From Clostridium facile (GTDB taxonomy: Bacteria > Bacillota > Clostridia > Oscillospirales > Ruminococcaceae): 32,000 bases of DNA. The stretch covers positions 1,033,603 to 1,065,602 of the forward strand of contig NZ_JACOQK010000001.1 of the NCBI RefSeq assembly GCF_014297275.1, given 5' to 3'. The notes beneath the pieces were generated by a model, which ran no database searches, was not told the DNA's origin, and was given only the letters and a program-made list of their open reading frames with translations. The position numbers were made by a program, and so were the translations under genes. Each line of letters opens with the position of its first letter. Position 1 is the stretch's first letter. Below are positions 2,794-32,000 of the stretch, one piece after another.

Positions 2794-5700
2794 TTATTTT
2801 TTCTTACGGGTGAACAACAGAGCTGCTCCTGCTAATGTAATTGCTGCTAATCCTGCAATTGGAGCAAAATCGCCTGTTTTCGCCGCGTTTGCTTTTGGTG
2901 TGGTAGATTCCTCTCCAGTTTGAGTAGCTGTATCATCAGTGGACGGTGTTGTTTCTTCTGGAACACTTCCATCTACTGTTACTAATTGATCCATTGCAGC
3001 TTGTACGTTTGTTACTGCTGCATCTACTTCCTCTTGAGTTGCGTTTTCATCTGCCATTACGTCATTTGCTTCTGCTACTGCTGCTGTCAATACTGCGTAG
3101 CTTTCTGCTGTATACGCAGATGCGTCTTTACCATTCGCTTCTGCCAATACAGATTCTAAGATAGATTTATCTGCTTTATATCTCAGATTCAGCATTGCGT
3201 TCAACAGGTTAGTTTCTGCTGTTTCGATTTCTGCCTGCATTGCGTTGTCTTTGTCTGCAAGGATTGCCTGTGCTGCTGCCAATGCTTCTTTAAATTCTGC
3301 TTGGCCTGCTTCTACATAGTCATTCATGTCATAACCTTCTGCCAATGCTACTAGAGTTTCTAAGGAAGTGATATCCCCTTTCACAAAGCCTAGTTTATGG
3401 ATTTCGGTCATCAATGTTTTCCATGCCGCGTCTACTTCTTCCTGAGTTGCTGCTGGATCTGCTGCAACTGCTTTGGCTGCATCCAATGCTGCATTGAAAG
3501 TTTTCTGCACATCCGCAATGATATTATTGAATTCATCAGATGCTTTTTGTTGTTCTGCATAGTCAATAACAGTGTTTAAAATATCTTTATCCGCTACTTC
3601 GTATTCAGAATCTACGAAAGGAACGATTACTGCCTGGCTTGGCCCATATGGCAAGTATTTTGTCTGTCTCATTTCACCAAACCAATTATTTCTGCTATTT
3701 CCACCAGGTTTAATTGCGCCACGGGAAAGTTGAACATTTCCTAATGGAGAACTATATTCAATATGGATCGTATTTTCACCGTCTACCAGGTATTCACTGA
3801 TATCCGCTACTGGGTCTGTAGAACTGATACCACCTGTGTATTGTTCTGTTCCTTCATATCCTTCAATTACAGATTGTGGAACTTTGGTTGGGTTCGTACT
3901 TACATCTCCGCCAACTTTCTGTCCATTAATCCATACTTTCATGCTGGAATAGAATTCATCGCCAAAGTCGATATATGCACCATCAGCGGAGCTGCTATCC
4001 CAATTAAATTTCGCATCATAATACCCAATACCGGATACGCTTTCTCCTACTTCAGGAATATTATTCCATGTAGTCAGTTCATCCAGTTTTACATTGATAT
4101 CTGTCTTGTCAGTATCAACTTTAGTATTTACAGTATGTACATCACCAATCGTTTCTTCACTGCGGAGTACATTTTCCGATGGTGTCCAAGATTCTACTGT
4201 TACATCCCAGTTAGTAATTGGGTAGGATTCTGGTACGTTGATTTCTTCTGTTACTGTTCTGCCACTACTCAATTTCGTTGTATAAGTACCACTTTGAGTT
4301 GCTCGTACTGCTACACCATTTTCTGTTCCATATGCCATATCTGCGTTGGTTGAAGTTGCGTGGAATGATTCCTCGGTTACTGGTTCAAACGCATATAGAG
4401 CGATATCATCATAATCCAAATCGATTGGGAATACAGTCTGACCATCTTCATAATAGTAATTACCAATTTCAGTTACTTCACCTGTCCAGGAATCGATGGT
4501 ATATGGGATATACATGCCATCCATCCGGATTTCTGTCTTGATGTTGGTTCCATGGTCTTCTGTTTTTACTTCATCAATAAAGCTGTTTTCATGGTAATCG
4601 TTGGAGCAGTAATTATAAGCATACAAATAACGGCTACCATCTTCTGCTTCACGGGTTTGGGTCAATAACTGATGGTTTGCCCCATTAAATTCAGCGTATG
4701 GACGGATGCCCATTTCCTGCATTGCATCGTACAGACCATCGTCATAGCCTTCCGCTACTTTGTCAAAGTAATCAAAGTCTTCAGAAGCATCGTAAATTTC
4801 TACATCTTTTACATTTGGCAGGGCTCTCATCTGTTCCATAATGGAAGCCAATTCTTCGTCCTTGCCATCGTTAAAGGTAGTGCGTTCCGCAGCCCCTTCC
4901 ATAATAAAGACTGGCAGGCCTTTTTGTGCCCATTCATAGATCAATTTCGCGCCATCAATATCCAGCCAATCCTGATAGAGTACCAGTGCTTTATAGCCTG
5001 CTGGTTCTATTGTCTTGGTATCTTCATCAAAGTAAACGCCGTCCGCTTTGAGCATATCAGGGCTAAAGTAATCATAGGTATAGCCGTTATCTTGCAGTTC
5101 AGTAGAACGATAGTAAACACCCTGATGAGCCAACATATACTGCATACCAGTGAGGCCATCTCCAGATTCTCCACCAAATCTTACACCTTGGTTCCAGTTG
5201 TTGTGGATAAAGCCAACATCGGTTCTGGAATTACCGGTTTGTAACATCTGCTGGATACGTCCCAGATGTGCGTTCATTTCGTCAAAGTCCTTATAGGAAG
5301 GTTCACGGGTTCCCCAACGGTCAAAACCAGAGCCCCAGCCTGGCCATGCAGCGTTTTCACCATAGCTATAGCCTGCGCTCCAAATATGCCAGATTAACTG
5401 TTGGAAACCGGAAGCATACATGGTATAAGCATCTTCCAAGCGAAGTTGTTGTGGAGTATAATAGGTATTTAATTCAGTTCCTGTTTCACTGGAAAGAACT
5501 TTATCCAACAGATGGTTGCCAGCACTATGTAATCTTAAAATATCAACCTGGTTGTATTGGTTCAAACTCTCTGCTTCTGGATAATCTACATACATTGCTG
5601 GTTCTGTGATTTCAAATGACCGACCATAGGAAATCTGGGCACGTGTTTCAATTCCTACAGAATTTAACCATTCTTTTAATGGTTGTAGCATATTTTCACA

Positions 5701-16899: not shown

Positions 16900-17669
16900 A
16901 TTTCAATCCACGCTGCCCGTGTGGGCAGCGACGCATAGTAAAAACCTCCTATTAACTTGACTTTGTGTATTTCAATCCACGCTGCCCGTGTGGGCAGCGA
17001 CTTTGTCCCAACGGTTATGCCACTAGGGACACAAAATATTTCAATCCACGCTGCCCGTGTGGGCAGCGACGGTACACATGTTTAGACTGCAAACACGCAT
17101 TGCTATTTCAATCCACGCTGCCCGTGTGGGCAGCGACGGGTTTTATCTTTTTGACGATATTACTATTATATCATTTCAATCCACGCTGCCCGTGTGGGCA
17201 GCGACTTTAAACCTCATTGTATTAAAGATAATGTTAGGATTTCAATCCACGCTGCCCGTGTGGGCAGCGACGTTGGACGAATTGGAAAACAAAAAGGTTC
17301 AGTTGGATTTCAATCCACGCTGCCCGTGTGGGCAGCGACCTCTACGGTTTCCTGCCCGTCATAGTCCATACAATTTCAATCCACGCTGCCCGTGTGGGCA
17401 GCGACCAAAATCATCATGCCTCATGCTTGATATGCCATTATTTCAATCCACGCTGCCCGTGTGGGCAGCGACCTGCCGCTGGTTTTTTGCCATCCAGCAT
17501 GGAATATTTCAATCCACGCTGCCCGTGTGGGCAGCGACTTCTTGCCATGCAACAGTATAGCGGTACAAATATTTCAATCCACGCTGCCCGTGTGGGCAGC
17601 GACTGCTTTTCACTCCATATTATTTTATTCAATTCTATTTCAATCCACGCTGCCCGTGTGGGCAGCGAC
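16900..17669 (-). CRISPR. Type I-C CRISPR array: 12 identical 33-bp repeats, 11 spacers
   Basis: Plus-strand repeat ATTTCAATCCACGCTGCCCGTGTGGGCAGCGAC (crRNA sense GTCGCTGCCCACACGGGCAGCGTGGATTGAAAT) starting at 16900, 16969, 17038, 17105, 17173, 17239, 17307, 17373, 17440, 17506, 17571, 17637; spacers 36,36,34,35,33,35,33,34,33,32,33 nt. Orientation inferred from cas2-side leader and the conserved GTGGATTGAAA 3' end. Confidence 0.99.
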
Positions 17670-17838: not shown

Positions 17839-18129
17839 TTAAATTAAGAGCTCCCCTTCCAGTTCCAGGCTATCTTTCACCCCGTAATGCTCCACTTTTT
17901 TCTGGTACTGTTCTCCTAAATAATAGAAGCGGATGCTGTCCTTTTTCTCGTCAATATGACGGAGGAGCTTTTCTTTTACTTCACGGCTTTTGGCTGCGTC
18001 CATGATACATTCAAATACAGAGTTCTGCACCCGCTGGCCATAATTTTCACATTCTTTTGCCACCTTACGCAGGCGCTTTTTACCCGCTTCTGTTTCGGTG
18101 TTCACATCATAGGTGATTAAAACCAACAT
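17839..18129 (-). CDS. cas2: CRISPR-associated endoribonuclease Cas2
   Basis: 96 aa MLVLITYDVNTETEAGKKRLRKVAKECENYGQRVQNSVFECIMDAAKSREVKEKLLRHIDEKKDSIRFYYLG. Confidence 0.98.
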   Translation of the reverse strand: MLVLITYDVNTETEAGKKRLRKVAKECENYGQRVQNSVFECIMDAAKSREVKEKLLRHIDEKKDSIRFYYLGEQYQKKVEHYGVKDSLELEGELLI

Positions 18130-18138
18130 TGCTTTCCT

Positions 18139-19170
18139 CTACTTCCACAAAAATACTGGGTATTCATCCAGCTCACCTCGGATATATCTGGCAAGCAGCA
18201 GGCTTTGGGCATAAGGGATTAGCCCCCATTCTATCTTTTCCTCCAAAAATGGATGCTTGATCACCTCTTTTTTCTTTTGCTGCCATGCCTTTATGATAGT
18301 ATTCCGACCAGAATCCGTCATCAACACAGCCCCATTTTCCTTTTGGATAAAATCAGTGGGCTTTACCATGTTCCGGTTCACCAATCCAATGACAAAACGG
18401 TCAACAAACGGGGCTCGCAGTTCTTCCATGAAATCCATTGCCAAGGAAGCCCGACCTGGCCGTTCGCAGTGGAGGAAACCTACGTAAGGGTCCAATCCGA
18501 CTGAGGATAGAGCGGAGGTACAATCATTGGCAAGAAGGGTATACAAAAAGGAAAGCATGGCATTCATATTGTCCAAGGGGGGACGGCGGTTCCGTTCACG
18601 AAAGAAAAAATCCTGCTTGTTCCGCAAAATCAACTGGTCGATCATCGAAAAGTACTGACTGGCAGCATTTCCCTCAATTCCCCTGATTTCGTCCAACGAG
18701 CTACTTTCCATTAACTGATTGATAGAACCCGCAAGGTTGGAACTGACCTTTTTCAATTCTTCTACATCTACCTGTAAGGGATGATCCCTGGTGGCACGCT
18801 CTAAAATCCATCTGCTGTTATGGAGTTTTCCCACAATCATATTCCTAGCGATCCTTACTGACTGGGTTTCGTCATCCGAAATCCGGTACTGCTGTTTGCG
18901 CAGCACCACATTGCCTTTCATTTCCCCGGCAACACTAGCTAAGAACCTGCCATGCTGGCTCATAAAACAGAGGGAAATATTGTGTTTGACACATGCTCCC
19001 ATCAAGGCGGGACTGGCACCGGTGTACCCAAATGTAACTATCCCCTCCAAGTTGTGCAGAGGAACTCTGGCAACCGTTTTCCCCTGTTCCAGTACCAGTA
19101 CGGTTTCCCCTTCCAACGCCAGATATCGCTCGGGGGAAACTACGTAAAGGGTGTTTAATAATTTTCTCAT
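18139..19170 (-). CDS. cas1: CRISPR-associated integrase Cas1 (type I-C)
   Basis: 343 aa MRKLLNTLYVVSPERYLALEGETVLVLEQGKTVARVPLHNLEGIVTFGYTGASPALMGACVKHNISLCFMSQHGRFLA... Confidence 0.98.
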   Translation of the reverse strand: MRKLLNTLYVVSPERYLALEGETVLVLEQGKTVARVPLHNLEGIVTFGYTGASPALMGACVKHNISLCFMSQHGRFLASVAGEMKGNVVLRKQQYRISDDETQSVRIARNMIVGKLHNSRWILERATRDHPLQVDVEELKKVSSNLAGSINQLMESSSLDEIRGIEGNAASQYFSMIDQLILRNKQDFFFRERNRRPPLDNMNAMLSFLYTLLANDCTSALSSVGLDPYVGFLHCERPGRASLAMDFMEELRAPFVDRFVIGLVNRNMVKPTDFIQKENGAVLMTDSGRNTIIKAWQQKKKEVIKHPFLEEKIEWGLIPYAQSLLLARYIRGELDEYPVFLWK

Positions 19171-19841
19171 GGCTCCTCCTCCCCGGTTTGCCTCCTGATA
19201 TAATCATGGACAGAAGGGCGTTTTAACAATTTTGGCAGGCAAATTTCCTTTAAGGAACAGGCGTTGCAGGCTTTTGTTCGTTTGACCATTGGCGTATGTC
19301 GCCGTTGAAACAAATCGTGCATCTGGGCGCATACATTCTCCAGTTTTTGACGAAACTCCTGGGTAATCTCCACCTTTTCCCGGTGCCGTGTGGCACCATA
19401 ATACAGATATCCATATGGGATATCGGTACACAGCATCTCTTCCAGGCAAACTGCTTGCGCCACAAGCTGGAGCCTGTCCGCATCGCTGATTTTGGGTTCC
19501 CCTTTTTTGTACTCCACCGGAACAACCCGGTAAAATCCTTCTTTTTGGAACAGGGAGATCCCTTCCTGCTGGGTGCAGCGGTGGAACTCCACTACATCGC
19601 AAATCCCGCTGATTCCTAATTTTGCGGAAAACACCCGCATCTCCCGGGAAATGAGCAGTTGTCCCCTGCTCTCCAAAGTTGGTCCCTCATGGGCTCTCTG
19701 GTGCAGAATGTTCCCCTCTATGGTTCGCAGGTTATCCGCCCACTGCTCTTCGATTTCAATCAACGCCCACTGCCGCTTGCAAAACACAAAGTGCTGTATC
19801 CCAGAGAGCATCAAGAAATCTTCCTCTTTATATTCCGTCAT
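19167..19841 (-). CDS. cas4: CRISPR-associated nuclease Cas4
   Basis: 224 aa: SGIQHFVFCKRQWALIEIEEQW...VVPVEYKKGEPK...C-terminal cysteines KACNACSLKEIC. Confidence 0.97.
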   Translation of the reverse strand: MTEYKEEDFLMLSGIQHFVFCKRQWALIEIEEQWADNLRTIEGNILHQRAHEGPTLESRGQLLISREMRVFSAKLGISGICDVVEFHRCTQQEGISLFQKEGFYRVVPVEYKKGEPKISDADRLQLVAQAVCLEEMLCTDIPYGYLYYGATRHREKVEITQEFRQKLENVCAQMHDLFQRRHTPMVKRTKACNACSLKEICLPKLLKRPSVHDYIRRQTGEEEP

Positions 19842-20691
19842 ATTCTTCTACTGTTAACCCTTCCAGCGGGGTGAGGGTAATCTGGTAGTCCTCTATGCTT
19901 TTTGGGGTAAGAACCCCTTCTTTTTTGGCAACGCAAAGGCTATCGTGAACCTTTTTGGTGGAATACTGGCCAATTTTGCAGTTGTGTTCCCACCAGTAGA
20001 GCTTATGAATCTCCATACTGCCTTCCGGACGTGCGGAGGAACTATCGTTGACAAAAAGGGTGCGGATAGCTTCTTTGATTTTTTCCGCGTCCTCCTGGGT
20101 AAATCCGGTTTTTTCTGCAAGCTGGACGTTGATGCTCCCTTTTAAGAGGTATACACCAAAATCAACCCGGTGCTTATCCCCCATGGTGTCTGATGCTTTC
20201 CCTCCTTTGGTATCCTCACTGTTGACGCTTTTGGTGATTTTGATAGTGGTGATATTGATTGGATCCACGCTAAATGCTGGATGGAGGGAAACCGGCCCCC
20301 TTATTCCGAGGGAAAGTTCTTCCCCCTTAAAAGCGAATACTTGTCCAAAGCTGCGTACATCCATCCACTCTTGGCAAGCGGCTTGATAGGCTACTTGCGC
20401 ATTGGCTTTTTTCCCTTTTTTCAGTTCTGTGCCAAAGGCGGGGTTTTTATCCGCCCGCTCTTTCAGGCTGTCATAACCATCCACATTTTTGTCATCGGAC
20501 TGGACAAAGATGGATTCCCCCATATCCATCAGGCGGTTTCTGATTTTCCGTTTGATGCAGACATCCGAAATCTCCCCAAACCCTTCATCAGTGATTCTTG
20601 GCATATTTCCGTTGAGGGGATCGCCGTTGCAGTTTGCGTTATTTACTGTAATAATTGCCTCAAAATCAATTTTATTTTGTAATACACCCAT
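19828..20691 (-). CDS. cas7: Type I-C Cascade subunit Cas7 (Csd2)
   Basis: 287 aa: IDFEAIITVNNANCNGDPLNGNMPRITDEGFGEISDVCIKRKIRNRLMDMG... Confidence 0.97.
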   Translation of the reverse strand: MGVLQNKIDFEAIITVNNANCNGDPLNGNMPRITDEGFGEISDVCIKRKIRNRLMDMGESIFVQSDDKNVDGYDSLKERADKNPAFGTELKKGKKANAQVAYQAACQEWMDVRSFGQVFAFKGEELSLGIRGPVSLHPAFSVDPINITTIKITKSVNSEDTKGGKASDTMGDKHRVDFGVYLLKGSINVQLAEKTGFTQEDAEKIKEAIRTLFVNDSSSARPEGSMEIHKLYWWEHNCKIGQYSTKKVHDSLCVAKKEGVLTPKSIEDYQITLTPLEGLTVEEYDGI

Positions 20692-20692
20692 T

Positions 20693-22651
20693 TTATTCTT
20701 CCTCCATCTTCTGTGATTTTTTTATTTGCCGTTCTTTGATAATTTGTATCCTTTGGCTGCAAAAACCAGATAAAAATGCCGCCCCCAAATTTCGTTTCTT
20801 TTTCAGTTCTTTCGTATCAATTCTACTGACCATTTCGTCTAATAAATCGCATAAATCGCAGAGTTTTATCCCCTTGGATTGCATAATGTAAACATTCACC
20901 TTATTGTAAAGTACTGTTAACGTGTCGTAAGGGCTCTGGCAAAACCGCGTAAGAAGCCTTCTCGCATTGGTAGGGCGAACTTCTTTATAAGATTCGTTGT
21001 CATCCGGCTTATTTTTTCCCCACAGCACCTGATTTTCAATAGCATCAGCAAGTGCCACAAATCTTCCGCAATTGTATTCAATATCATCAGTTTCTTTTAC
21101 ACAATTAAAAACACCATTTTCTCCCATAACAAATTCCTCCATTCTATAAATCAACGGATTGTCCTTATCGTAATCATATAAATAACGGTTATATAAGGCG
21201 CATGCCGCAAAAGCAACTTGTTCCCATAAGGACCCATAGCCATAGTTTTGTGGGAATTTCGCCTTGTTGACAGCAGCTTTTACAATATCCCGTGGAATTT
21301 TCGCCCCATCACAGATACAGGGCAGAATCCGCTGCACAGTATCTGCTAACAGCTTATTACTTCCCACTTCCAGATAGTTGCCCCTGCTCACCCCAAACGC
21401 CGCTTTTGCCAGATTCACTGGGGACGGCGCACCAAAATGGTATTCTTGTTTTTTTATCTCGTTGTAATAACGGATATTCCAGGCGCAGGTTTTGTGCCAT
21501 CGCTCTATGTTGTCAATCAGTTCGTTTCCTTGCAGTCCATTGTACTCTCGGTTGAAAACCACCGCCATCCTTCCGGTAGTAGCAGCATCCAACCCCAACA
21601 GCACCAGCTGGCTGTCCTTCCTGATTTCAGCGTGATAACCTGTAATCGCCATTTTAAACTGTTGGGCAAACTCCTGTTCAGTATTAATTTCCACACTCTG
21701 CTCCTCAAAGCAGAACTGGAATGTATCCGCCATGGGGTCGGGGAGTTCTTCCCCATCCACTCCCCACAGAACGAATACACGGTCACCAATTCTGGCAACT
21801 TGCTTCTGGTTCTGAATCAGCCATTTTAAGGCGTTATGGGCTTTTTGGGACGCCTCATAGGATATGGTATACGCTTGTTCCGCTGTTTCAAACCGTCCAC
21901 GGAAAGTAAAATTGGTGGTATCATTGGCAGAAATCAATTTTGCCTTATCACCGGAATTTCTGATTTTAGACGGATGGATGGTGCAGGCCCTTACATGATT
22001 TCCTGTGACATAACAGAGTTTTTTGCTGCCCTCCTGGCTCAAGTAGTAGTTTGTATATTGGTCTTGCAGTTTTCCATCCTGCCACAACGCGGGGACAGAA
22101 TCAATCCCAATCACCGAAAACCGTACAAAGGCATCGGATTGGTTGCCCACCGGCAGTTTTAAATTAGGCTGGTTTTCCCATTTCTTTGTCAACCTTCCGT
22201 TTTCATCCACCGAAAAAATACCCTGTTCCACCAAATCGTGAATCAATGTTTTCTGGTTCAGATACTGGTAAACCGCTTTGACCTTTGGGTTGCTGTACGA
22301 AGATTCACACCATGCTTGTAATTGTTCCATATACGCCTGATAGGCTTCGGCGTTATCCTCTTTGCAGAACCGGGGATAATCCCCCGCTATGTACTTTAGT
22401 TTATCGAATAAAGGATGGGGGCATGGTTTGGATGTCCGGTTGGCGGAATATTCAGTTACCGGTATCACCGTATCCGCTTGATCTTTTTCCACAGGGGTTG
22501 CAGAGATAAACTGCCCCTCCTTGCCCAGCTTGACATCCACATGCGCCTGTTGGGTGGAGAATCCCACCTTAAGCAGCCCTCTTTGGGTGAAATTAGCGGG
22601 GTCTTTTTCCAGCCTTTCATAGGTACGGTACAACGTCATCATGTAACTCAT
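20693..22651 (-). CDS. cas8c: Type I-C Cascade large subunit Cas8c (Csd1)
   Basis: 652 aa: MSYMMTLYRTYERLEKDPANF...VKAVYQYLNQKTLIHDLVEQGIF...FSVIGIDSVPALWQDGKLQDQYTNYY...LCYVTGNHVRACTIHPSKIRNSGDKAKLISANDTTNFTFRGRF. Confidence 0.97.
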   Translation of the reverse strand: MSYMMTLYRTYERLEKDPANFTQRGLLKVGFSTQQAHVDVKLGKEGQFISATPVEKDQADTVIPVTEYSANRTSKPCPHPLFDKLKYIAGDYPRFCKEDNAEAYQAYMEQLQAWCESSYSNPKVKAVYQYLNQKTLIHDLVEQGIFSVDENGRLTKKWENQPNLKLPVGNQSDAFVRFSVIGIDSVPALWQDGKLQDQYTNYYLSQEGSKKLCYVTGNHVRACTIHPSKIRNSGDKAKLISANDTTNFTFRGRFETAEQAYTISYEASQKAHNALKWLIQNQKQVARIGDRVFVLWGVDGEELPDPMADTFQFCFEEQSVEINTEQEFAQQFKMAITGYHAEIRKDSQLVLLGLDAATTGRMAVVFNREYNGLQGNELIDNIERWHKTCAWNIRYYNEIKKQEYHFGAPSPVNLAKAAFGVSRGNYLEVGSNKLLADTVQRILPCICDGAKIPRDIVKAAVNKAKFPQNYGYGSLWEQVAFAACALYNRYLYDYDKDNPLIYRMEEFVMGENGVFNCVKETDDIEYNCGRFVALADAIENQVLWGKNKPDDNESYKEVRPTNARRLLTRFCQSPYDTLTVLYNKVNVYIMQSKGIKLCDLCDLLDEMVSRIDTKELKKKRNLGAAFLSGFCSQRIQIIKERQIKKSQKMEEE

Positions 22652-23376
22652 TGGGCGCCACCCCCTTCCTGGTAACCCTCCAGAAGCCCAGGCTCCTGCA
22701 AACCGGAAAAGTTGGAAGAATCAAACCGTTTCGGTTTCATCTCCCTCACTGGAATCCGTTGGACACAATCCTCCTGTTTACAGTAGCGAATCACGCCCCG
22801 CTCCATTTTAGGATACCAGAACAACGCCTCCAATTGGTTGGTACCGTTCTGGTCAGGGTAAACAAACGAGTGGAACATCAGCCCAAAGTCCATCTGCTCC
22901 AAATCGCTGTAACAGCTCTGTTCCTCCCCTGTAACTGGTTCCACGTATGCCTGGCATTCCCGCGCCCCTAAAAAGACATCCCGCCTGCCTCCTTTTTCGA
23001 TGCAGCGTTTCGCAACCCAGTAGTGTTTATGCTCGTTCCAGTCCTGTTTTAAATCGGGACGATATAGGTTGAACTCAAAATGCGCCTTGACAATGTAGGA
23101 CACATTTGATAAGTACGTGTAATACGCCAAATCGTTGCCGCCGTAGTATTTGATGGGGCGAATGCCCTTCCGCTCGGTACGGATGGGGTTTAAAACCGTT
23201 GCTTCATCGATTATCCATAAAATAGACGGCTTCCAGTACACCGATGACACAATCCCTTTTAACGCCTCAGCAGTGGGAATCATCAAGGTGGATTTTTCCC
23301 CACCAATTTTGGTCATGGGGTCGGTGAATAAGGCGAATCTACCAGAAACCTTAAAAGTGACCTGATTTGGTTTCAT
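22648..23376 (-). CDS. cas5: Type I-C Cas5c (Csd5), predicted crRNA-processing subunit
   Basis: 242 aa: MKPNQVTFKVSGRFALFTDPMTKIGGEKSTLMIPTAEALKGIVSSVYWKPSILWIIDEATVLNPIRTERKG...; RBS AAAGGAGG. Confidence 0.96.
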   Translation of the reverse strand: MKPNQVTFKVSGRFALFTDPMTKIGGEKSTLMIPTAEALKGIVSSVYWKPSILWIIDEATVLNPIRTERKGIRPIKYYGGNDLAYYTYLSNVSYIVKAHFEFNLYRPDLKQDWNEHKHYWVAKRCIEKGGRRDVFLGARECQAYVEPVTGEEQSCYSDLEQMDFGLMFHSFVYPDQNGTNQLEALFWYPKMERGVIRYCKQEDCVQRIPVREMKPKRFDSSNFSGLQEPGLLEGYQEGGGAQ

Positions 23377-23393
23377 TGCTGTTCCTCCTTTCT

Positions 23394-23429
23394 AACTTTT
23401 CTTATACTATTTTTCACTTATTTTGTAAA
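23394..23429 (-). promoter_or_regulatory. Predicted sigma-A-type promoter of cas5-cas8c-cas7-cas4-cas1-cas2
   Basis: Minus strand TTTACA (-35, plus 23424-23429), 17-nt spacer, TATAAG (-10, plus 23401-23406); expected start site ~23394, followed by AAAGGAGG and the cas5 ATG. Confidence 0.85.
23400..23417 (+). promoter_or_regulatory. Protospacer-like site in the cas5 operon promoter matching the crRNA-like RNA
   Basis: TCTTATACTATTTTTCAC vs TCTTATACTATCTTTAAC at 23514-23531: 16/18 identities, first 11 contiguous, preceded by AACTTT (a TTC trinucleotide occupies 23399-23401). Confidence 0.8.
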
Positions 23430-23474
23430 GGGAAATTTTTCATAAAAAAACAGCTTTCTTCTTGTACATTTTTA

Positions 23475-23483
23475 TGGTATACT
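23475..23483 (+). promoter_or_regulatory. Extended -10 promoter of the crRNA-like RNA
   Basis: TGGTATACT (TGn + TATACT); -35 is weak (TTTCTT at 23455-23460 with 17-nt spacing). Expected start falls at about G23490, the first base of the repeat-like sequence. Confidence 0.7.
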
Positions 23484-23489
23484 AAAAGC

Positions 23490-23594
23490 GTCGCAATTTG
23501 CGTGGATTGAAAATCTTATACTATCTTTAACGAAAGAACTGCTTTGTAACAGGTGAGGACGCTATCCTTGTCTGTTGCAAAGCTTTTCTTTTTT
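23490..23594 (+). ncRNA. Predicted crRNA-like regulatory RNA (CreR/CreA-like): degenerate repeat + pseudo-spacer + intrinsic terminator, opposite to the cas genes
   Basis: 23490-23514 GTCGCAATTTGCGTGGATTGAAAAT keeps both repeat ends (GTCGC... and ...GCGTGGATTGAAA) but has a 4-bp hairpin (CGCA-ATT-TGCG) instead of 8 bp (CGCTGCCC-ACAC-GGGCAGCG); then ~27-nt spacer-like segment; then terminator. Confidence 0.8.
23541..23594 (+). terminator. Strong intrinsic terminator of the crRNA-like RNA
   Basis: Arms GCTTTGTAACAG (23541-23552) / CTGTTGCAAAGC (23572-23583), continuing inward through three wobble pairs and AGGA/TCCT to loop CGCTA, followed by TTTTCTTTTTT just before the cas3 stop codon. Confidence 0.85.
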
Positions 23595-23597
23595 CTC

Positions 23598-25946
23598 TTA
23601 AAACAGCGCCAGATCATCTTTCAGGGTTACCCCCAGGCAAGCGTCATAATGGAGGGACCCCATCAGGTATGCCCCTGTCACCTGATTTTGGGTGATATCA
23701 TTCTGTAACGTCTGGAACTGGTATCGGTACAGATTGACCGAATATTTCCGCAATTGGGAAAGTAATCTTTTCTTTTCCTCCATAGGTGAAAACTCGTTAA
23801 GCTGCTCCAGTTTTTCTATGAGTTGTAACCCCTCCCCATAAGGGACAATCACTGGGATGGTATCGTTTCCAATCACCTCAAAGGGTTGCGCTGCCGATTG
23901 GAATTTTACTGTAGTAAATAATGGGCTTTTTCTGATTTTATTTTGTAGTAATTCATAAATGGATACAGATCCATTCAAAGGGTAGGAAAACTGTTTGGAA
24001 ATCCGCTCATCCTGATAATAAAGCTGAAAAAACTCCTTAATAGAGGATGGAGATAAACCGTCTGAGGTCATCCGCAGCACGCTATCCGCATGGTCGATTC
24101 CAATTGGATATTCCGGCATGTTATTGTAAGAGCCTTCCTGCAATTTTACCGCATAGCAATAACCCAGTTCCTGTTCCCCATTACGGTTGACCCTACCCGC
24201 TGTCTGGGCAACCGAATCCAGACGGGTTAAGCTGCGGACCGCTGCTTCAAAGCTGATATCCACCCCAGCTTCAATGAGCGAAGTGCTGACGCAGATTAAG
24301 TCCTCCCCATCTTTTAGCGCCTGCTTTAGTTCCTTCAACACCTTGCCTCTATGTGCCTGACACAAGCGGGTACTCAAATAAAACAGATTTATCCCTTCCA
24401 GTTCGGGAGATTGGCACAGCATTTCCCAAACAGCAGCTGCGGTATCCACCTTATTCACCACTGCCAATAGGCTTTTTACCTCGCGTTTTCTCTCCAAGAG
24501 GAACTGCTGAAATTGTTCCAAGTCATATTTCTTTGGCTTATAGACCACCTGTACTCGCTTGAGCTGCTCAAAATTGCGGCTGACATTCTTCACAATTTCA
24601 GCATCTTCCGATTCTTTTATCATGGGATGCCCCAGAAGATTCGTATAAGGCTGGGTAGCAGTACAAAGTACTAGGGTAGAATTCCCTACCTGGCGCAGAA
24701 AATTGGCTGCGCTTGTGAACAAATCCATACATTTGGCAGGAAGGGTTTGGATTTCATCAAAAATAATGGTGGCATTCATCAGATGGTGGAGACGGCGCAT
24801 GTCCTGAGTACCTCGATGGTAGAAGGTGTTTAAAAACTGCACCATAGTCGTAAAAATGATATCGCTCTCCCAACGTTCGGTAAGCAGTTTATAATCCTCC
24901 TGCTGGTTATCCTCCAACAGGTTGGAATGGTGCTCCAGCAAATCGCACTGGTAGCCCAGAGCTTTCCGAATTTGTTCAGCGTTTTGCTCGATGATTGAAG
25001 TATATGGAATGACATAGACAATCCGCTGTTTTTGATTTAGCCGGTTATGGTTCAGGGCAAACCGCATACTGGAAAGGGTTTTCCCTCCCCCTGTTGGAAC
25101 AGTAAGACGGTAGATACCCGTCCCTCTATTGGACGCAAGAAAACATTCATCCGAGATTGCTTGCCGAATCCGGTTTACCTGCTCTGTTTTGGGTTCCGCA
25201 GATGATTTCTGGCTGAGTTGGGACAGATAAACCTCAAACCTACCTTGGTATTCCTCCCATGCTGGGAATTGCTGTTCCCGTTCTATTACAGGGGAGATCC
25301 CCCTGTTTTCCTCAAAGCACATGCTGTCCATCCGGTCGGCGTCAATCAGTATGCTGTAGATGGTTTTGATCAGCAGGTGGTAACAGAACACCCCATCTTT
25401 CATTTTTGTAACCCCTTCGATAATAGGAACCAGTTCTTCTAACGCTTGGTGGAACAGTTTGGTAAGATCTTCTTGGATTTCCTGGGAAAACCGTTGGTAT
25501 GCCTGTTCTATCCTGTGTTGGTCTAGTTTTTCGAACCGCTCCAAAAGAGGGGATTGATTACAGACATCCACACAATCTTTTAATCCGCCATGGTGGTAGC
25601 AGCACGCCATGGCGATGATTTCCACGATGGCGCCACGCCGGCTTTTTCCCGGATAAAAGGTTTGGAAAAAATATTTTGCCCCATATACCCCATGGTCAAA
25701 ATCGGATTTCCGTTTCTGGGAAAGGTACTGCTTTGGGTTTTGCACTGCCCGCTGCCGTTCCCCTTCGATAAAATCCTGGAACTGCTGGTCGTATTTGCCC
25801 ATATCATGGAGCAAACCCGCCAGGCGCATGGTTTGAGAAAGGTTTAATTTTGCCCCGAATGATTCTGACAGACTGGCAACCCCTAAAATATGCTCCCGTA
25901 ACGGCTGCTGTTTTCCATCCTGTAGCCGGAACCTTGCCTGATACAT
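23598..25946 (-). CDS. cas3: CRISPR-associated helicase-nuclease Cas3 (N-terminal HD + DExD/H helicase)
   Basis: 782 aa: LAGLLHDMGKYDQQFQDF (HD), YRLTVPTGGGKTLSSMRFAL (Walker A), IIFDEIQTL (Walker B), TSLIEAGVDISFEAAVR, QTAGRVNRNGE. Confidence 0.98.
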   Translation of the reverse strand: MYQARFRLQDGKQQPLREHILGVASLSESFGAKLNLSQTMRLAGLLHDMGKYDQQFQDFIEGERQRAVQNPKQYLSQKRKSDFDHGVYGAKYFFQTFYPGKSRRGAIVEIIAMACCYHHGGLKDCVDVCNQSPLLERFEKLDQHRIEQAYQRFSQEIQEDLTKLFHQALEELVPIIEGVTKMKDGVFCYHLLIKTIYSILIDADRMDSMCFEENRGISPVIEREQQFPAWEEYQGRFEVYLSQLSQKSSAEPKTEQVNRIRQAISDECFLASNRGTGIYRLTVPTGGGKTLSSMRFALNHNRLNQKQRIVYVIPYTSIIEQNAEQIRKALGYQCDLLEHHSNLLEDNQQEDYKLLTERWESDIIFTTMVQFLNTFYHRGTQDMRRLHHLMNATIIFDEIQTLPAKCMDLFTSAANFLRQVGNSTLVLCTATQPYTNLLGHPMIKESEDAEIVKNVSRNFEQLKRVQVVYKPKKYDLEQFQQFLLERKREVKSLLAVVNKVDTAAAVWEMLCQSPELEGINLFYLSTRLCQAHRGKVLKELKQALKDGEDLICVSTSLIEAGVDISFEAAVRSLTRLDSVAQTAGRVNRNGEQELGYCYAVKLQEGSYNNMPEYPIGIDHADSVLRMTSDGLSPSSIKEFFQLYYQDERISKQFSYPLNGSVSIYELLQNKIRKSPLFTTVKFQSAAQPFEVIGNDTIPVIVPYGEGLQLIEKLEQLNEFSPMEEKKRLLSQLRKYSVNLYRYQFQTLQNDITQNQVTGAYLMGSLHYDACLGVTLKDDLALF

Positions 25947-26319: not shown

Positions 26320-26718
26320 ATGCGAAAAGCAATACGAGAATTTTTGATTTATGACGCCTTTGTTGCGGTTACTATGATTGCAAGATATTTTGTAGTGAAT
26401 GATATTGAGTGGGGATATTTTTGGCTTTGCGTGGTCTATTTTCCAACTGTTTTTTTGTTTCAACCAGTTTTTGGGTTACTACTGGGATACCGGGCAATAA
26501 AAAAATATAATATCCCCTGCTTGCGGTTTTTAGCGTTAAGCCTGCTGTTCTTTCTGATCAACGGTTTTACATTTTCTATTCTATCCATAGGAAGTGCGTA
26601 CACATATGGATTTATAGATACTTTTTGGAACACCGGTTTGATATATGCGTGCATATTCATTGCGTTTTACTGGTTGTCCTATTTTATTACAAAATTTTAT
26701 TTGAAGTTTTATTTTTAA
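26320..26718 (+). CDS. Hypothetical polytopic membrane protein, 132 aa
   Basis: Good RBS (TTGGAGGGAAAA) and four hydrophobic segments; followed by a terminator. Confidence 0.7.
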   Translation: MRKAIREFLIYDAFVAVTMIARYFVVNDIEWGYFWLCVVYFPTVFLFQPVFGLLLGYRAIKKYNIPCLRFLALSLLFFLINGFTFSILSIGSAYTYGFIDTFWNTGLIYACIFIAFYWLSYFITKFYLKFYF

Positions 26719-27086: not shown

Positions 27087-29999
27087 TTATTGAAATGGCT
27101 GTTCTATCTGCTGTTTTAAAAAGAGCAGGTTACGCAAACAAGAAAGGGTTTGTGGATCGGATTCCCCCAGCGTATCCCTGAGGATGAAAAAGGAGCGTTC
27201 CAGATAATCCAATGCTTTACAAAGCTTCCTTTGCATAAAGTAGGCATGGCCAATTTCATTGTAATCCACAGCGATTTCCGGATGCAGTTCTCCAAGGATA
27301 TGTTGATGAATCCGTAAGGCTTTTGGGTAAAAGCCAATCGCTTTATCATACAAACATTGGATTTCATATAAATCCCCAATTAAGATATATTCCTCTGCTA
27401 CCTCCATAGATTCTTCCCCAAAAGCCTTCTGGCTGGCACGTAAAGAGTTTTGGTAAGCTTCCAGCGCATTTGAATATTCCTTTTGGAGGCTGTAAAGATG
27501 ACCAATATTATGGAAAAGGGTTGTGATTGCCTGAATATTTTCTTTTGTCTGCCCTTGTTCGATTTGCAGGCATTTTTGATAACACTCCAACGCTTTGGCA
27601 TAATTTTTCTGGCAACTATATAAATAGGCGATTGCGTTATACACCATGGACACGTTAGTATCCTGTTCTCCATACAGGTTCTGGGTTACTTTTAGCGCTT
27701 TCTGATAATATTCCAACGCCTTTGGATATCGTTTCCAATCCTGGTACATTTGAGCAATATTGTTATAGTAGGTGACAATATTGGGATGGTTTTCCCCCAA
27801 CAATTCCAGCTCTATTTCCAGTGCTGTTTGAAAATACCTCACCGCATTTGGATAATCTCCCATACCATAATAGGCTCCACCAATATTGTTATAGATCGTT
27901 GCGGTGGATTTATGAAATCCTTCTGTAAGATTTTGGTCGATTTCCAACGCCTTTTGGTAATACTCCAATGCTGTAGTATATTCTCCTTTTCGATGGTGTA
28001 CCATTCCAATATTCAGATAATTGACAATAATATTGGGATGCTGTTCCCCAAAAACCCTGCGGTTGATTGCTAGCCCTTTTTGATAATATTCTAATGCTAG
28101 TCCTAATTTTTGTTGCCTGCTATAGACACCTCCAATGTTATGGTAACAGGCTGCGGTTTCTGGATGTTCTTCCCCCAGTATCTTCTGGTTGATTTGCAAC
28201 GCTTTCGTATAATATTCTAAAGCGGTTTCATTATCCCCAAAGATAACATAAATCGAACCCATATTATTGTATACCGATGCTGCTGTATGCCCCTTGGAAT
28301 ATTTTTCGTCCAAAGCAATCGCCTTCTGATAATATTCCAATGCTGCGGCATAATCCCCTTTTTCAAAATAAAGCAATCCAATATTTCCATAAATGGAATA
28401 CAGCCGCAGCTCTTCTTTTATTTTTTTCTGATGAATATTCAGTGCTTTATTGTAATATTCCAGTGCAACATCATACTGGCACAGGTATTGGTATACCATA
28501 CCAATATTTTCATACTCTGTAGCAACCTGCAAGCACTCTTCTCCTAAGGTGTTCCGGACAATTTGCAAGGATTTTTGGTAATACGCCAAAGCGTCCATAT
28601 ATTTGCCACAATCGCAGTATACTAGCCCCATACTATTGTAAACAGATGCAGTATACACATCCTCTTTTCCAACTGTTTGGAGAAAAATGTTAAGCGCTTT
28701 CTGATCATATTCCAACGCTTTTGGAAAGTTGGCTCCTTGGCGAAGCAATTCAGCGTACTTGAGGAAAAAATTAGCATATGCCACGTCATCTCCTTCAATC
28801 CGTTTCGCTACAGCGTCTCCAAACTGGGAAATCTCCTGTCTTTGCTGGCAGGTATCGCAGTAGGAACCTAGATAATCGAAAATTGCTTCCAGATAACACC
28901 AGCAGTCCTTGATGTTGGGGGTTAGGTCATTCTCTAGAATATCTGCCATCACAGGATGGAGGGAATAGTGGGTGTTTTCGTTCCGTACCCATCCACGGGC
29001 TACCAACTGTTTCAGTTGGGGTAGTTTGGTTGATTCCATCCCACACCATTTTAGGAACTGCTTCCCGTCCACACCAGTGTAAGGAACCAACAATAAATTC
29101 CTTAACAGATAAATTTGATCCTCCGACAGTTTCTCCCTGCTAATATCAAAAATAGCGCGTAAATGTTGGTACATACTTTTTTGGGATTGCTTTCCGTCCT
29201 TATTCAAGGGGATCACGGTATCCTGATGATCTTTGAGTTTTTCCCTTAGTTCCTCCAGCATTTCCGCCAGGGGGATTTCTTCCTCCCGTATCTGTTTTGC
29301 CAGAAGCTCCACCGTCATGGTGTGTCGATCCACCAGCTGAATCAATTCATCCAGTTGGGCAAGTTCATCCTCTGTAAAATCCGTGCTTCCGTAAGAATGA
29401 AAAAACACCTCCCTAGCCTGTTCCGATTCCAATGGCATCACCTTAACCTGCTGTTTCCCATACTGACTCCAATCATTCCGGGTAGTAAACAACAGATACC
29501 ATCCCATTGATTCCAGATCTTCCATCTCATCGGATTCTGTTTCATTGAAATTATCCACGATGAGTAAAACCCTTTGCTGGGCACACAATTGTTTTATCAC
29601 GGCCTTTTTTTGCAAATAATACTGTTCTAATTCTTCCGCTTTCGCTTTCGCTGGAATAGAAAAACCTCCCAAAGTTATCCCTAGAACAACATCCCGCAAA
29701 CTGGAAGCGTAATTTGCCCATACTACACTACCGTTCCACCGGGTGGCATATTGTTTGGCGAGCTCACTTTTCCCGATGCCGCCTATCCCCCAAAGAAATA
29801 CCGTCCTGCCTTCCTGGAATTTTTGTTCCAGTGTTTCCAACTCCTGTTCCCTGCCAACAAACCCTTCTTTCAGCGGGATGGCTGAGCAGAGGATACTGTA
29901 TTGTTTTTCCCCGTTGGGATGAAGATGGATATTGTATTCCGAAAGGTAGGTTGGCCCCTGGTTTTTCATCTCCTCAATCCGGATTCCGTCCTGTCCCAT
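27087..29999 (-). CDS. STAND-class (NB-ARC-like) NTPase with long C-terminal TPR array
   Basis: 970 aa: FVGREQELETLEQKFQEGRTVFLWGIGGIGKSELAKQYA (P-loop), RVLLIVDNFNE (Walker B), LLFTTRNDW (sensor); then many ~42-aa TPRs of the form YNNIGxxYxxxGxYxxALEYYQKALEIxxxxxGExHP. RBS GGAGG before ATG 29999. Confidence 0.88.
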   Translation of the reverse strand: MGQDGIRIEEMKNQGPTYLSEYNIHLHPNGEKQYSILCSAIPLKEGFVGREQELETLEQKFQEGRTVFLWGIGGIGKSELAKQYATRWNGSVVWANYASSLRDVVLGITLGGFSIPAKAKAEELEQYYLQKKAVIKQLCAQQRVLLIVDNFNETESDEMEDLESMGWYLLFTTRNDWSQYGKQQVKVMPLESEQAREVFFHSYGSTDFTEDELAQLDELIQLVDRHTMTVELLAKQIREEEIPLAEMLEELREKLKDHQDTVIPLNKDGKQSQKSMYQHLRAIFDISREKLSEDQIYLLRNLLLVPYTGVDGKQFLKWCGMESTKLPQLKQLVARGWVRNENTHYSLHPVMADILENDLTPNIKDCWCYLEAIFDYLGSYCDTCQQRQEISQFGDAVAKRIEGDDVAYANFFLKYAELLRQGANFPKALEYDQKALNIFLQTVGKEDVYTASVYNSMGLVYCDCGKYMDALAYYQKSLQIVRNTLGEECLQVATEYENIGMVYQYLCQYDVALEYYNKALNIHQKKIKEELRLYSIYGNIGLLYFEKGDYAAALEYYQKAIALDEKYSKGHTAASVYNNMGSIYVIFGDNETALEYYTKALQINQKILGEEHPETAACYHNIGGVYSRQQKLGLALEYYQKGLAINRRVFGEQHPNIIVNYLNIGMVHHRKGEYTTALEYYQKALEIDQNLTEGFHKSTATIYNNIGGAYYGMGDYPNAVRYFQTALEIELELLGENHPNIVTYYNNIAQMYQDWKRYPKALEYYQKALKVTQNLYGEQDTNVSMVYNAIAYLYSCQKNYAKALECYQKCLQIEQGQTKENIQAITTLFHNIGHLYSLQKEYSNALEAYQNSLRASQKAFGEESMEVAEEYILIGDLYEIQCLYDKAIGFYPKALRIHQHILGELHPEIAVDYNEIGHAYFMQRKLCKALDYLERSFFILRDTLGESDPQTLSCLRNLLFLKQQIEQPFQ

Positions 30000-30604: not shown

Positions 30605-32000
30605 TTATAGGCTATAGTATTCCATAAATCTCATAATCATCGTTGCTCCGGCCGCTCTTCCTGTTTGCCCTTGTGGGTCAATGACTGGCTGGTTGTTTTG
30701 CCCTTTGATGATACCGCAGCCCAGTGCCCATTCCATTGCTTCTTTGGAGAATGTACTTACCTGATTTCCGTCTTCATAATTGCCAATCGATGTTTTTTGG
30801 CTGGTGTCCAATCCTTTATACTGGGCGTATCGGTATAACATGGTTACAAACTGTTCTCTGGTAATCAATACCCCTACCCCAAATTCATTTGTATCCTGGT
30901 AGCCTGTTGTTATCCCAACTTGTTTTGCCCACAATACCGCATTCGTAAAATAAGCATTATCTGGTACATCTGAAAATATAGGCTCATAACTTATAGCTGG
31001 TTCCCCTTCCAAACGGTACAAGATGGTTACCAGATGGTCACGGGCCATACTTTCATTTGGTCCAAAAGTGGTCTCGTTAAACCCTGTCATTATGCCACGG
31101 TCATAGGTAAACCTTACAGCATCGTAACACCAATCATTTACAGAAACATCATTATATGGCAGGTCAATAGAAATAAAATCAATGCCTCTTTCTATTGCGA
31201 GTTTTTCTGCTGGACTACCAGATAATCCATAAATAGTTGATAAATTACTACATTCTTTAAATTCATTTTCTCCAATTATCGTATTTCCATTAAATTTAAC
31301 AGTCTTTAAATTATTACAACCATAAAATACACCATTAATAGATTGAATACTATTAGGTATAGTAAAAAACGTTAATCCATAGCATTCACGAAAAGCATTT
31401 GGTTCAATAGTAAGAATACTTTCTGATAATGACACAGATTTTAACCTATAACATTTTTCAAATGCAGAATTTCCAATTGTTTCTAAACCTTGTGGAAATT
31501 CAATGGACGATAAAGATATACAGTTTTTAAACGCACAATCACCAATCTTTTTTAAATTACATGGTAAATTAATATATTCCAAACTGGAACATCCAAAAAA
31601 GGCATATTCCCCCAAAATTTTAACAGTATCAGGAATTGAAATTGAAGTTATATTTTTGCATTCTCCAAAAGCATAACTAGAAATTTTAGTAATTCCATTA
31701 GGAATATTAATATCGCCAGATGCATTACCTGTTCCAAATAAAACTGTATTCAAAATAATATATGGATTTTCAATTCCCCATGGTGTATTTGTAAACGCTT
31801 GCAATTCAATTTTTTCAATAGTAGATGGAATATCTACATATACTAAATTAGAACAATTAACAAAGGCACCACTACCTATCGATTTAACATTACTTGGTAT
31901 ATCTATAGATTTTAAATTATTACAATAAGAAAAAGAACCAGATTGTATGTTAGTTAACTTTTTGGGCAGTGATATTGATTCAAAAGAACATCCGCTAAAA
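30605..32000 (-). CDS. BspA-type leucine-rich-repeat protein with C-terminal SLH domains, partial at right window edge
   Basis: LRR pattern ITKISSYAFGECKNITSISIPDTVKILGEYAFFGCSSLEYINLP..., SLH-like segments FSDVPDNAYFTNAVLWAKQVGITTGY and REQFVTMLYRYA. The frame stays open upstream of the ORF-track start: ...IPSNVKSIGSGAFVNCSNLVYVDIPSTIEKIELQAFTNTPW. Confidence 0.9.
   Translation of the reverse strand, partial: FSGCSFESISLPKKLTNIQSGSFSYCNNLKSIDIPSNVKSIGSGAFVNCSNLVYVDIPSTIEKIELQAFTNTPWGIENPYIILNTVLFGTGNASGDINIPNGITKISSYAFGECKNITSISIPDTVKILGEYAFFGCSSLEYINLPCNLKKIGDCAFKNCISLSSIEFPQGLETIGNSAFEKCYRLKSVSLSESILTIEPNAFRECYGLTFFTIPNSIQSINGVFYGCNNLKTVKFNGNTIIGENEFKECSNLSTIYGLSGSPAEKLAIERGIDFISIDLPYNDVSVNDWCYDAVRFTYDRGIMTGFNETTFGPNESMARDHLVTILYRLEGEPAISYEPIFSDVPDNAYFTNAVLWAKQVGITTGYQDTNEFGVGVLITREQFVTMLYRYAQYKGLDTSQKTSIGNYEDGNQVSTFSKEAMEWALGCGIIKGQNNQPVIDPQGQTGRAAGATMIMRFMEYYSL

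Follow-up and report, generated by a model that had tools for sequence, protein, structure and literature searches.

A probable CreR-type guide RNA gene between cas3 and cas5c of a type I-C CRISPR-Cas locus, with a predicted target over the cas5c promoter

Introduction

Among the systems closest to the one described here are CreA and CreR, which Liu et al. tested in types I-B, I-E and V-A and for which they predicted type I-C elements by manual search (bioRxiv 10.1101/2023.03.10.532045). A layout of one repeat followed by a terminator has been described for the V-A CreR and for viral mimics (bioRxiv 10.1101/2024.10.29.618823). Shmakov et al. reported regulatory mini-arrays that lie between cas3 and cas8 in I-E and I-F1 systems, in the orientation opposite to cas3. 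These mini-arrays have a PAM-flanked target in the Cascade promoter and leave every sixth position unpaired, and the shortness of the match prevents cleavage (PMC10120712). Table 1 of that study records a repeat-like sequence in 34% of I-C loci and a mini-array, by its authors' definition, in 7% (PMC10120712).

For type I-C itself, solitary repeat units in the cas3-cas5c interval were reported to give crRNA-like RNAs, described as “CRISPR-supervised immune systems” (CRISIS; bioRxiv 10.1101/2024.12.27.630466). Those RNAs carry a Cas5c-cut 11-nt handle and a 3' hairpin, use TTC or TTA PAMs, do not pair at positions 6 and 12, and repress non-cas defence genes that lie in between (such as Nezha and Gabija), mostly in Neisseria (bioRxiv 10.1101/2024.12.27.630466). 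Racrs, finally, are viral RNA anti-CRISPRs (PMC10651486), and Cracrs are regulatory mimics (bioRxiv 10.1101/2024.10.29.618823). We found no tested I-C autoregulatory case in the literature compared.

In this report, we describe the anatomy of a crRNA-like unit in the cas3/cas5c gap of a type I-C locus, its match to the promoter region of cas5c, and the conservation of such units, with their PAM and pairing periodicity, across a family of related loci. An earlier note on this DNA had added that the element may be undescribed. That was too strong, given that I-C solitary repeat units have been reported (bioRxiv 10.1101/2024.12.27.630466) and an I-C creR has been predicted (bioRxiv 10.1101/2023.03.10.532045).

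Results

The cas locus and its surroundings

All coordinates are relative to the window, by which we mean the whole 32-kb stretch of DNA analysed. Its minus strand carries a chromosomal type I-C CRISPR-Cas locus in which NCBIfam matches identify type I-C cas3, cas5c, cas8c, cas7, cas4, cas1 and cas2 (Table 1). Cas5c is the pre-crRNA endonuclease and also the Cascade subunit that binds the handle; its gene, starting at 23376, is the first of the operon that we propose to be regulated. The array is both the parent sequence of the repeat derivative described below and the source of competing canonical crRNAs. The locus is flanked by housekeeping genes, including those for a PcrA/UvrD helicase, peptidases and a sulfatase; the setting is not a mobile element.

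Several other reading frames lie upstream of the cas genes. A 132-aa ORF without a family match (26320-26718) is divergent from cas3. Farther upstream, the minus strand encodes a 970-aa protein rich in TPR repeats (27087-29999) and a 399-aa adhesin-like protein with leucine-rich repeats (30605-31804); we saw no link between these two repeat-protein genes and the CRISPR locus.

Table 1. Positions of the cas genes, the array and the elements of the cas3/cas5c gap in the window
Feature	Position	Strand	Remarks
cas3	23598-25946	minus	NCBIfam match; upstream of the crRNA-like unit; stop codon 23598-23600
cas5c	22648-23376	minus	TIGR01876, 231 bits; ribosome-binding site AGGAGG at 23389-23384
cas8c	20693-22651	minus	NCBIfam match; downstream of cas5c
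cas7	19828-20691	minus	NCBIfam match; downstream of cas5c
cas4	19167-19841	minus	NCBIfam match; downstream of cas5c
cas1	18139-19170	minus	NCBIfam match; downstream of cas5c
cas2	17839-18129	minus	NCBIfam match; downstream of cas5c
cas3/cas5c gap	23377-23597		221 bp, from the cas5c start to the cas3 stop
CRISPR array	16900-17669	minus	12 identical 33-nt repeats, GTCGCTGCCCACACGGGCAGCGTGGATTGAAAT
Predicted cas3 promoter	-10 at 26006-26001	minus	Extended -10 TGTTATAAT; strong; sequence scan
Predicted extended -10 promoter of the unit	23475-23483	plus	TGGTATACT; ends 6 nt before the derivative
Lone repeat derivative (psiR)	23490-23513	plus	GTCGCAATTTGCG followed by TGGATTGAAAA; covariance model, 32 bits
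psiR, hairpin part	23490-23502	plus	GTCGCAATTTGCG; 4-bp stem
psiR, 5'-handle part	23503-23513	plus	TGGATTGAAAA; 11 nt
Spacer-like guide (psiS)	23514-23540	plus	27 nt; the first 18 nt, TCTTATACTATCTTTAAC, pair with the target
Intrinsic terminator / 3' hairpin	23541-23594	plus	19-bp stem 23541-23583; T tract 23584-23594
Predicted Cascade binding site	23397-23417	plus	PAM TTT 23397-23399; protospacer TCTTATACTATTTTTCAC 23400-23417
Predicted cas5c operon promoter	23401-23429	minus	-35 TTTACA 23429-23424; 17-nt spacer; -10 TATAAG 23406-23401

Anatomy of the plus-strand unit

The earlier note had placed a compact plus-strand unit in a 221-bp gap between cas3 and cas5. The unit was said to consist of an extended -10, an isolated type I-C repeat derivative, about 27 nt of spacer-like sequence, and a long terminator with a T tract just before the cas3 stop. 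The gap and each of these elements were verified (Table 1). The extended -10 is the only plus-strand promoter-like site that a looser sequence scan of our own found in the gap, and its distance from the derivative places the predicted transcription start near 23490. This looser scan gave one site per strand in the gap, versus none for the built-in promoter scan, which was empty there because its rule needs a -35 match and also a -10 that has T as its sixth base.

The derivative, psiR, lies 5.8 kb from the array. Its handle part is identical to the tail of the array repeat at 10 of 11 positions. Further, the exact 13-mer GCGTGGATTGAAA is confined, within the window, to the 12 array repeats and psiR. 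When up to two mismatches are allowed, this 13-mer has 14 matches in the window against 0.97 expected, the fourteenth (19754-19766, one mismatch) falling within cas4. The note's proposal that the central hairpin had been cut from 8 to 4 bp agrees with the predicted folds: the array repeat forms an 8-bp stem (-16.6 kcal/mol) and psiR a 4-bp stem (-2.7 kcal/mol), the latter being marginal and no better than those of shuffled sequences. Nor did we find a second repeat, in agreement with the note, to which none was visible; a covariance model of the derivative gives a single hit in the gap, with no other copy, and the sequence that follows psiS is the terminator hairpin, which has no similarity to the repeat.

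The T tract of this hairpin ends 3 nt from the cas3 stop codon. The hairpin folds with -31.2 kcal/mol on the plus strand (z = -8.2) versus -22.1 kcal/mol on the minus strand, where it is weaker because G.U pairs turn into mismatches. The hairpin thus appears to be built mainly for a plus-strand RNA, and it may also terminate cas3 transcripts on the minus strand. An Rfam scan of 23000-24000 at a permissive threshold returned chance matches only, and no family. We also considered a tracrRNA-like anti-repeat RNA and rejected it, for an RNA from the plus strand has the same sense as the repeat RNA transcribed from the minus-strand array.

A PAM-flanked match over the predicted cas5c promoter

No target had been named in the earlier note, and the one described here, at 23400-23417, is new relative to it. 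If the guide is taken to start at 23514, after the 11-nt handle, psiS matches this site at 11 of 11 seed positions and at 16 of 18 positions overall, with mismatches at positions 12 and 16. Guides were scored over positions 1-17 without 6 and 12, which leaves 15 positions. On this scale, with positions 6, 12 and 18 left aside, the match is 14/15; it is the best for psiS in the 32-kb window on both strands, and among 20000 shuffled versions of psiS, 11 score at least as high in the gap. Beyond position 18, two of 14 positions match. An alternative register, in which the guide begins at 23516 and the PAM is TTC, was rejected: it needs a 13-nt handle and shifts the mismatch off position 12, and the register is fixed by those units of other loci whose handle has the same ...GAAAA ending.

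The protospacer lies 114 nt upstream of the guide, in the same gap, over the -10 and the spacer of the predicted cas5c promoter. No other minus-strand site in the gap reaches 9/12 consensus matches. Its -10, TATAAG, is without the conserved final T, and a stricter promoter rule reported nothing.

The PAM of the site in the window is TTT, while the other 28 units with a target have TTC (26) or CTC (2). TTT is a functional alternative I-C PAM, second-best for interference in Legionella and weaker in B. halodurans (PMC5602111). Two sister contigs, one encoding an identical Cas5c (L081) and the other a 97% identical one (L082), have T for C at 23407, which is protospacer position 8. This change is the sole difference from the window in the part of the gap that the two contigs cover, while the flanking genes differ by 0.5-2.7%. 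The guide is unchanged in L081, and the L082 contig ends before the guide. Given this seed change in sister strains, repression may be weak or strain-variable in the lineage.

It is possible to read the unit as a guide RNA whose main target is elsewhere, namely as a CreTA-like antitoxin or as an RNA that supervises a cargo or defence gene beyond the window, with the match at the cas5c promoter being secondary. The known I-C crRNA-like RNAs between cas3 and cas5c do control cargo defence genes, a cargo gene lies between target and cas5c in some related loci (an HTH_Tnp_1 gene in L025, L038 and L053; a 170-aa gene in L085), and our target search covers 32 kb of the genome. We nonetheless judge this reading quite unlikely. 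The protospacer is 23 nt from the cas5c start codon, and the gap has neither a credible ORF nor room for a toxin gene; its ORFs, including a 47-aa hydrophobic one with a TTG start, are without a ribosome-binding site or other support. Further, no other site in the window scores above 12/15 with psiS, and none of those sites has a TTN PAM. In the same search, cas3 had no match to psiS, and the RNA is not predicted to act on it. With no room for a toxin gene, the unit is CreR-like and not CreA-like. The CreR/CreA-like reading of the earlier note is supported, on its CreR side, and it gains from the PAM-flanked target at the cas5c promoter and from the recurrence and periodicity found in related loci.

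Similar units in related type I-C loci

In the genome collection, the best Cas5c identity to that of the window was 63%, and a protein search yielded one 97% relative followed by others at 70% or less; the sister comparison consists of two short contigs. Our locus set comprised 80 related I-C loci and 3 closer relatives (67-69% Cas5c identity), taken from assemblies. Derivatives were sought by a simple motif search and then with a covariance model of the derivative. By the latter, solitary derivatives are present in 28 of the 80 loci and in the 3 closer relatives, and the element, which the earlier note had suggested seeking in related I-C loci, therefore recurs. About 30 further Firmicutes I-C loci have a similar unit and, adjoining it, a PAM-flanked partial target of its own. 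Exact searches for the derivative in metagenome contigs and searches for handle plus seed in viral contigs gave no matches.

Most of the units are located as in the window, in the cas3/cas5c gap and on the strand opposite cas5c. In 25 of 31 units there is an extended -10 (TGnTAnnnT), and in 24 of these it precedes the start of the derivative by 5-7 nt. At 15-35 nt past the handle, 24/31 units have a hairpin whose tail is T-rich. The derivatives always retain GTC, the base of the stem and the handle (U/C)GGAUUGAAA, and their upper stem and loop are shortened or replaced. The stem-base pairs covary across loci (99% of cells paired, 24 cells changed on both sides), in a count that includes true array repeats. 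In published work on Cas5c specificity, the cut site, the stem base and the 3' tail matter, and the loop and upper stem are dispensable (PMC8524198). Judged by their sequences, the retained parts of the repeat (stem base and 3' tail) would match these needs, and the lost parts would be dispensable ones. As a separate observation, the last base of the handle (-1) is A in 13/31 units (position 23513 of the window, and L004, L005, L009, L044, L045, L051, L053, L058, L080, L083, L085 and L086), whereas the final base of array repeats is T or C.

In loci where cas3 directly adjoins cas5c, the unit is placed upstream of cas3. It consists there of a promoter, a derivative, a guide and usually a hairpin, and its own TTC- or CTC-flanked target adjoins it (L066 1454-1491, L075 1461-1498, L076 167-205, L077 1360-1392, L086 878-910, L057 1309-1367, L021 1151-1183, L001 1441-1472 and L009 782-813). 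Because the target adjoins a unit upstream of cas3, this arrangement suggests that such units control the whole cas3-led operon. In two Lapidilactobacillus loci, the unit is also upstream of cas3 but shares the strand of the cas genes (L041 970-1010; L059 210-250). Their best TTC-flanked match, at 14/15, is about 2.7 kb from the unit and about 170 nt upstream of cas5c (L041 3737-3754; L059 2975-2992).

Guide-target pairing across loci

Of the 31 guides, 25 score 13/15 or better against the intergenic region next to their unit, and in all 25 cases this site is also the best match in the whole locus that was fetched. The PAMs of these 25 sites are TTC in 23 cases, TTT in the window and CTC in L086. 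When guides were compared with the wrong loci as a control, 18 of 930 comparisons reached 13/15. Guides and targets change together: between L066 and L075, positions 4 and 7 are changed in the guide and in the target alike, and a matched pair of its own is seen in each of L008, L014 and L063. The architecture closest to that of the window is found in an Anaerostipes assembly (L083/L084), where the guide TATTAAGTTATCTTGAAA and the site TTC-TATTAAGTTATGTTGAAT are mismatched at positions 12 and 18 only.

A second feature of this pairing is its periodicity. Flipping out of every sixth base is the known signature of a Cascade guide. Over the 29 units with a target, guide and target agree at positions 1-5, 7-11 and 13-16 with an identity of 0.86-1.0, and positions 6, 12 and 18 give 0.28, 0.41 and 0.28, respectively. 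From position 19 on, the identity stays at a background of about 0.2-0.3. Since positions 6, 12 and 18 were left out of the scoring, their drop to background is an independent result.

When no gene intervenes, the targets are 10-95 nt upstream of cas5c. In three Bacilli I-C loci, a gene that encodes about 90 aa, including an HTH_Tnp_1 domain (PF01527) as in IS3 OrfA, does intervene between target and cas5c (locus plus strand: L025 3632-3910, L038 about 3214-3507, L053 about 3499-3762); it may be a CRISPR-controlled cargo gene or a regulator. The gene at the same place in L085, a 68% Cas5c relative, encodes 170 aa (2891-3403) with a weak match to DUF5677 only, and it is a candidate CRISPR-supervised cargo gene.

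These comparisons bear on the notion that the unit is a decaying array relic or a stray repeat without function, its hairpin being simply the terminator of cas3. Some properties of the window would fit such a relic. Read on the minus strand, the sequence just past the cas3 stop can likewise form the hairpin (-22.1 kcal/mol); psiR has a short stem of marginal stability; and the sister strains have a seed mismatch in the proposed target. A relic would, however, leave unexplained the extended -10 at 5-7 nt upstream in 24/31 units, a PAM-flanked matching site in each locus when wrong pairings so seldom score (18/930), and the 6-nt periodicity of pairing; and the hairpin is 9 kcal/mol stronger on the plus strand. 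We regard a relic as quite improbable; the unit is real and very probably functional.

Discussion

We think it likely that the unit is a CreR/crlRNA-type gene whose guide RNA steers Cascade to the predicted cas5c promoter and represses the operon without cleaving DNA. The unit combines a repeat element separate from the array, equipped with a handle, and a partial PAM-proximal match to a predicted promoter, which are the core properties of cas-regulating crRNA-like RNAs. Further, the fall of identity to background past position 18 indicates, at the level of sequence, a complementarity too short for cleavage by Cas3.

The course of events that we propose is as follows. Transcription would start near 23490 from the extended -10. 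Cas5c, if its published specificity holds here, would cut at the 3' base of the short hairpin and leave an 11-nt handle, UGGAUUGAAAA. The 3' end would be set by the terminator hairpin, perhaps with trimming into the hairpin, to give a product of about 60-92 nt. This crRNA-like RNA would load into Cascade (Cas5c, Cas8c and Cas7), and its guide, which matches the TTT-flanked site 23400-23417 in sequence, would pair there over about 17-18 nt, across the predicted -10 of cas5c. Because pairing ends after position 18, a full R-loop and cleavage by Cas3 are not expected. By analogy, bound Cascade would block RNA polymerase at the cas5c promoter. The result would be negative feedback on cas5c-cas8c-cas7-cas4-cas1-cas2, with cas3 outside the loop. 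By analogy with the tested CreR systems, repression should ease once Cascade is titrated by canonical crRNAs or anti-CRISPR proteins.

That the unit is instead a decoy like the Racrs, drawing Cas5c and Cas7 into aberrant complexes and lowering immunity without binding DNA, is highly improbable, for although a solitary repeat unit behind a promoter is what typifies Racrs, one of which has been tested for type I-C (PMC10651486), this unit is inside a chromosomal cas operon and not in a mobile element, and Racrs need no conserved spacer-target match, whereas the family of this unit has one, with PAM and periodicity.

If confirmed, the autoregulatory reading would make the unit a compact, natural case of a type I-C Cascade operon that is held in check by its own guide RNA through feedback. 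In the literature compared, this circuit has been tested only for I-B, I-E, I-F and V-A systems. The comparison of about 30 loci yields design rules, namely the spacing of the promoter, the repeat nucleotides to keep, the length of the guide and the unpaired sixth positions. These rules could be used in annotating such RNAs and in engineering minimal I-C guides for gene repression.

More tentatively, and with doubts of our own, we raise the possibility of a widespread Firmicutes I-C family of minimal autoregulatory RNAs that control the Cascade/adaptation operon separately from cas3, with changes of PAM and seed tuning the set-point. The minimal design of such a family would be a promoter 6 nt upstream, one derivative with a 3-4 bp hairpin, a guide of about 17 nt and a terminator in place of the second repeat. 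Were this true, the TTT PAM and the seed change C23407T would be natural changes that tune the set-point, and the minimal natural substrate of Cas5c would be defined.

How, then, does the unit compare with the described systems? Like Racrs and Cracrs, it is a promoter-proximal solitary repeat unit, and with Cracrs it further shares the single repeat-like sequence, the short guide, the terminator and a target in a cas promoter. Those RNAs, however, are found on phages and plasmids and shut down host immunity, whereas this unit is chromosomal and lies in the very cas operon that it is proposed to regulate. The mini-arrays of Shmakov et al. have two repeats, and I-C is not part of their main-text analysis, while the unit described here has one repeat; their figure of 34% of I-C loci nevertheless agrees with the 28/80 found here.

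With the CRISIS-type I-C units, this unit shares the subtype, the slot between cas3 and cas5c, the sequence of the 11-nt handle, the 3' hairpin and a partial match, and some of those units are also single-repeat. It differs in having no cargo, and hence no defence gene between cas3 and cas5c, in having the predicted cas5c promoter as its target, and in its Firmicute host, 4-bp hairpin and TTT PAM.

The tested type I CreR and CreA elements are mini-arrays of two degenerate repeats that provide 5' and 3' handles, whereas the present unit has one shortened repeat, and a terminator forms the 3' end. In other respects, the unit resembles CreR of types I-B, I-E and V-A: a degenerate repeat and a spacer in a cas locus, a partial PAM-proximal complementarity to the effector promoter, no toxin partner, and a predicted autorepression that would sense crRNA load and anti-CRISPRs. 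This kind of element is already known, I-C crlRNAs between cas3 and cas5c having been described in preprints of 2023-2024, and the unit therefore represents no new mechanism; it is a clean new example of its kind.
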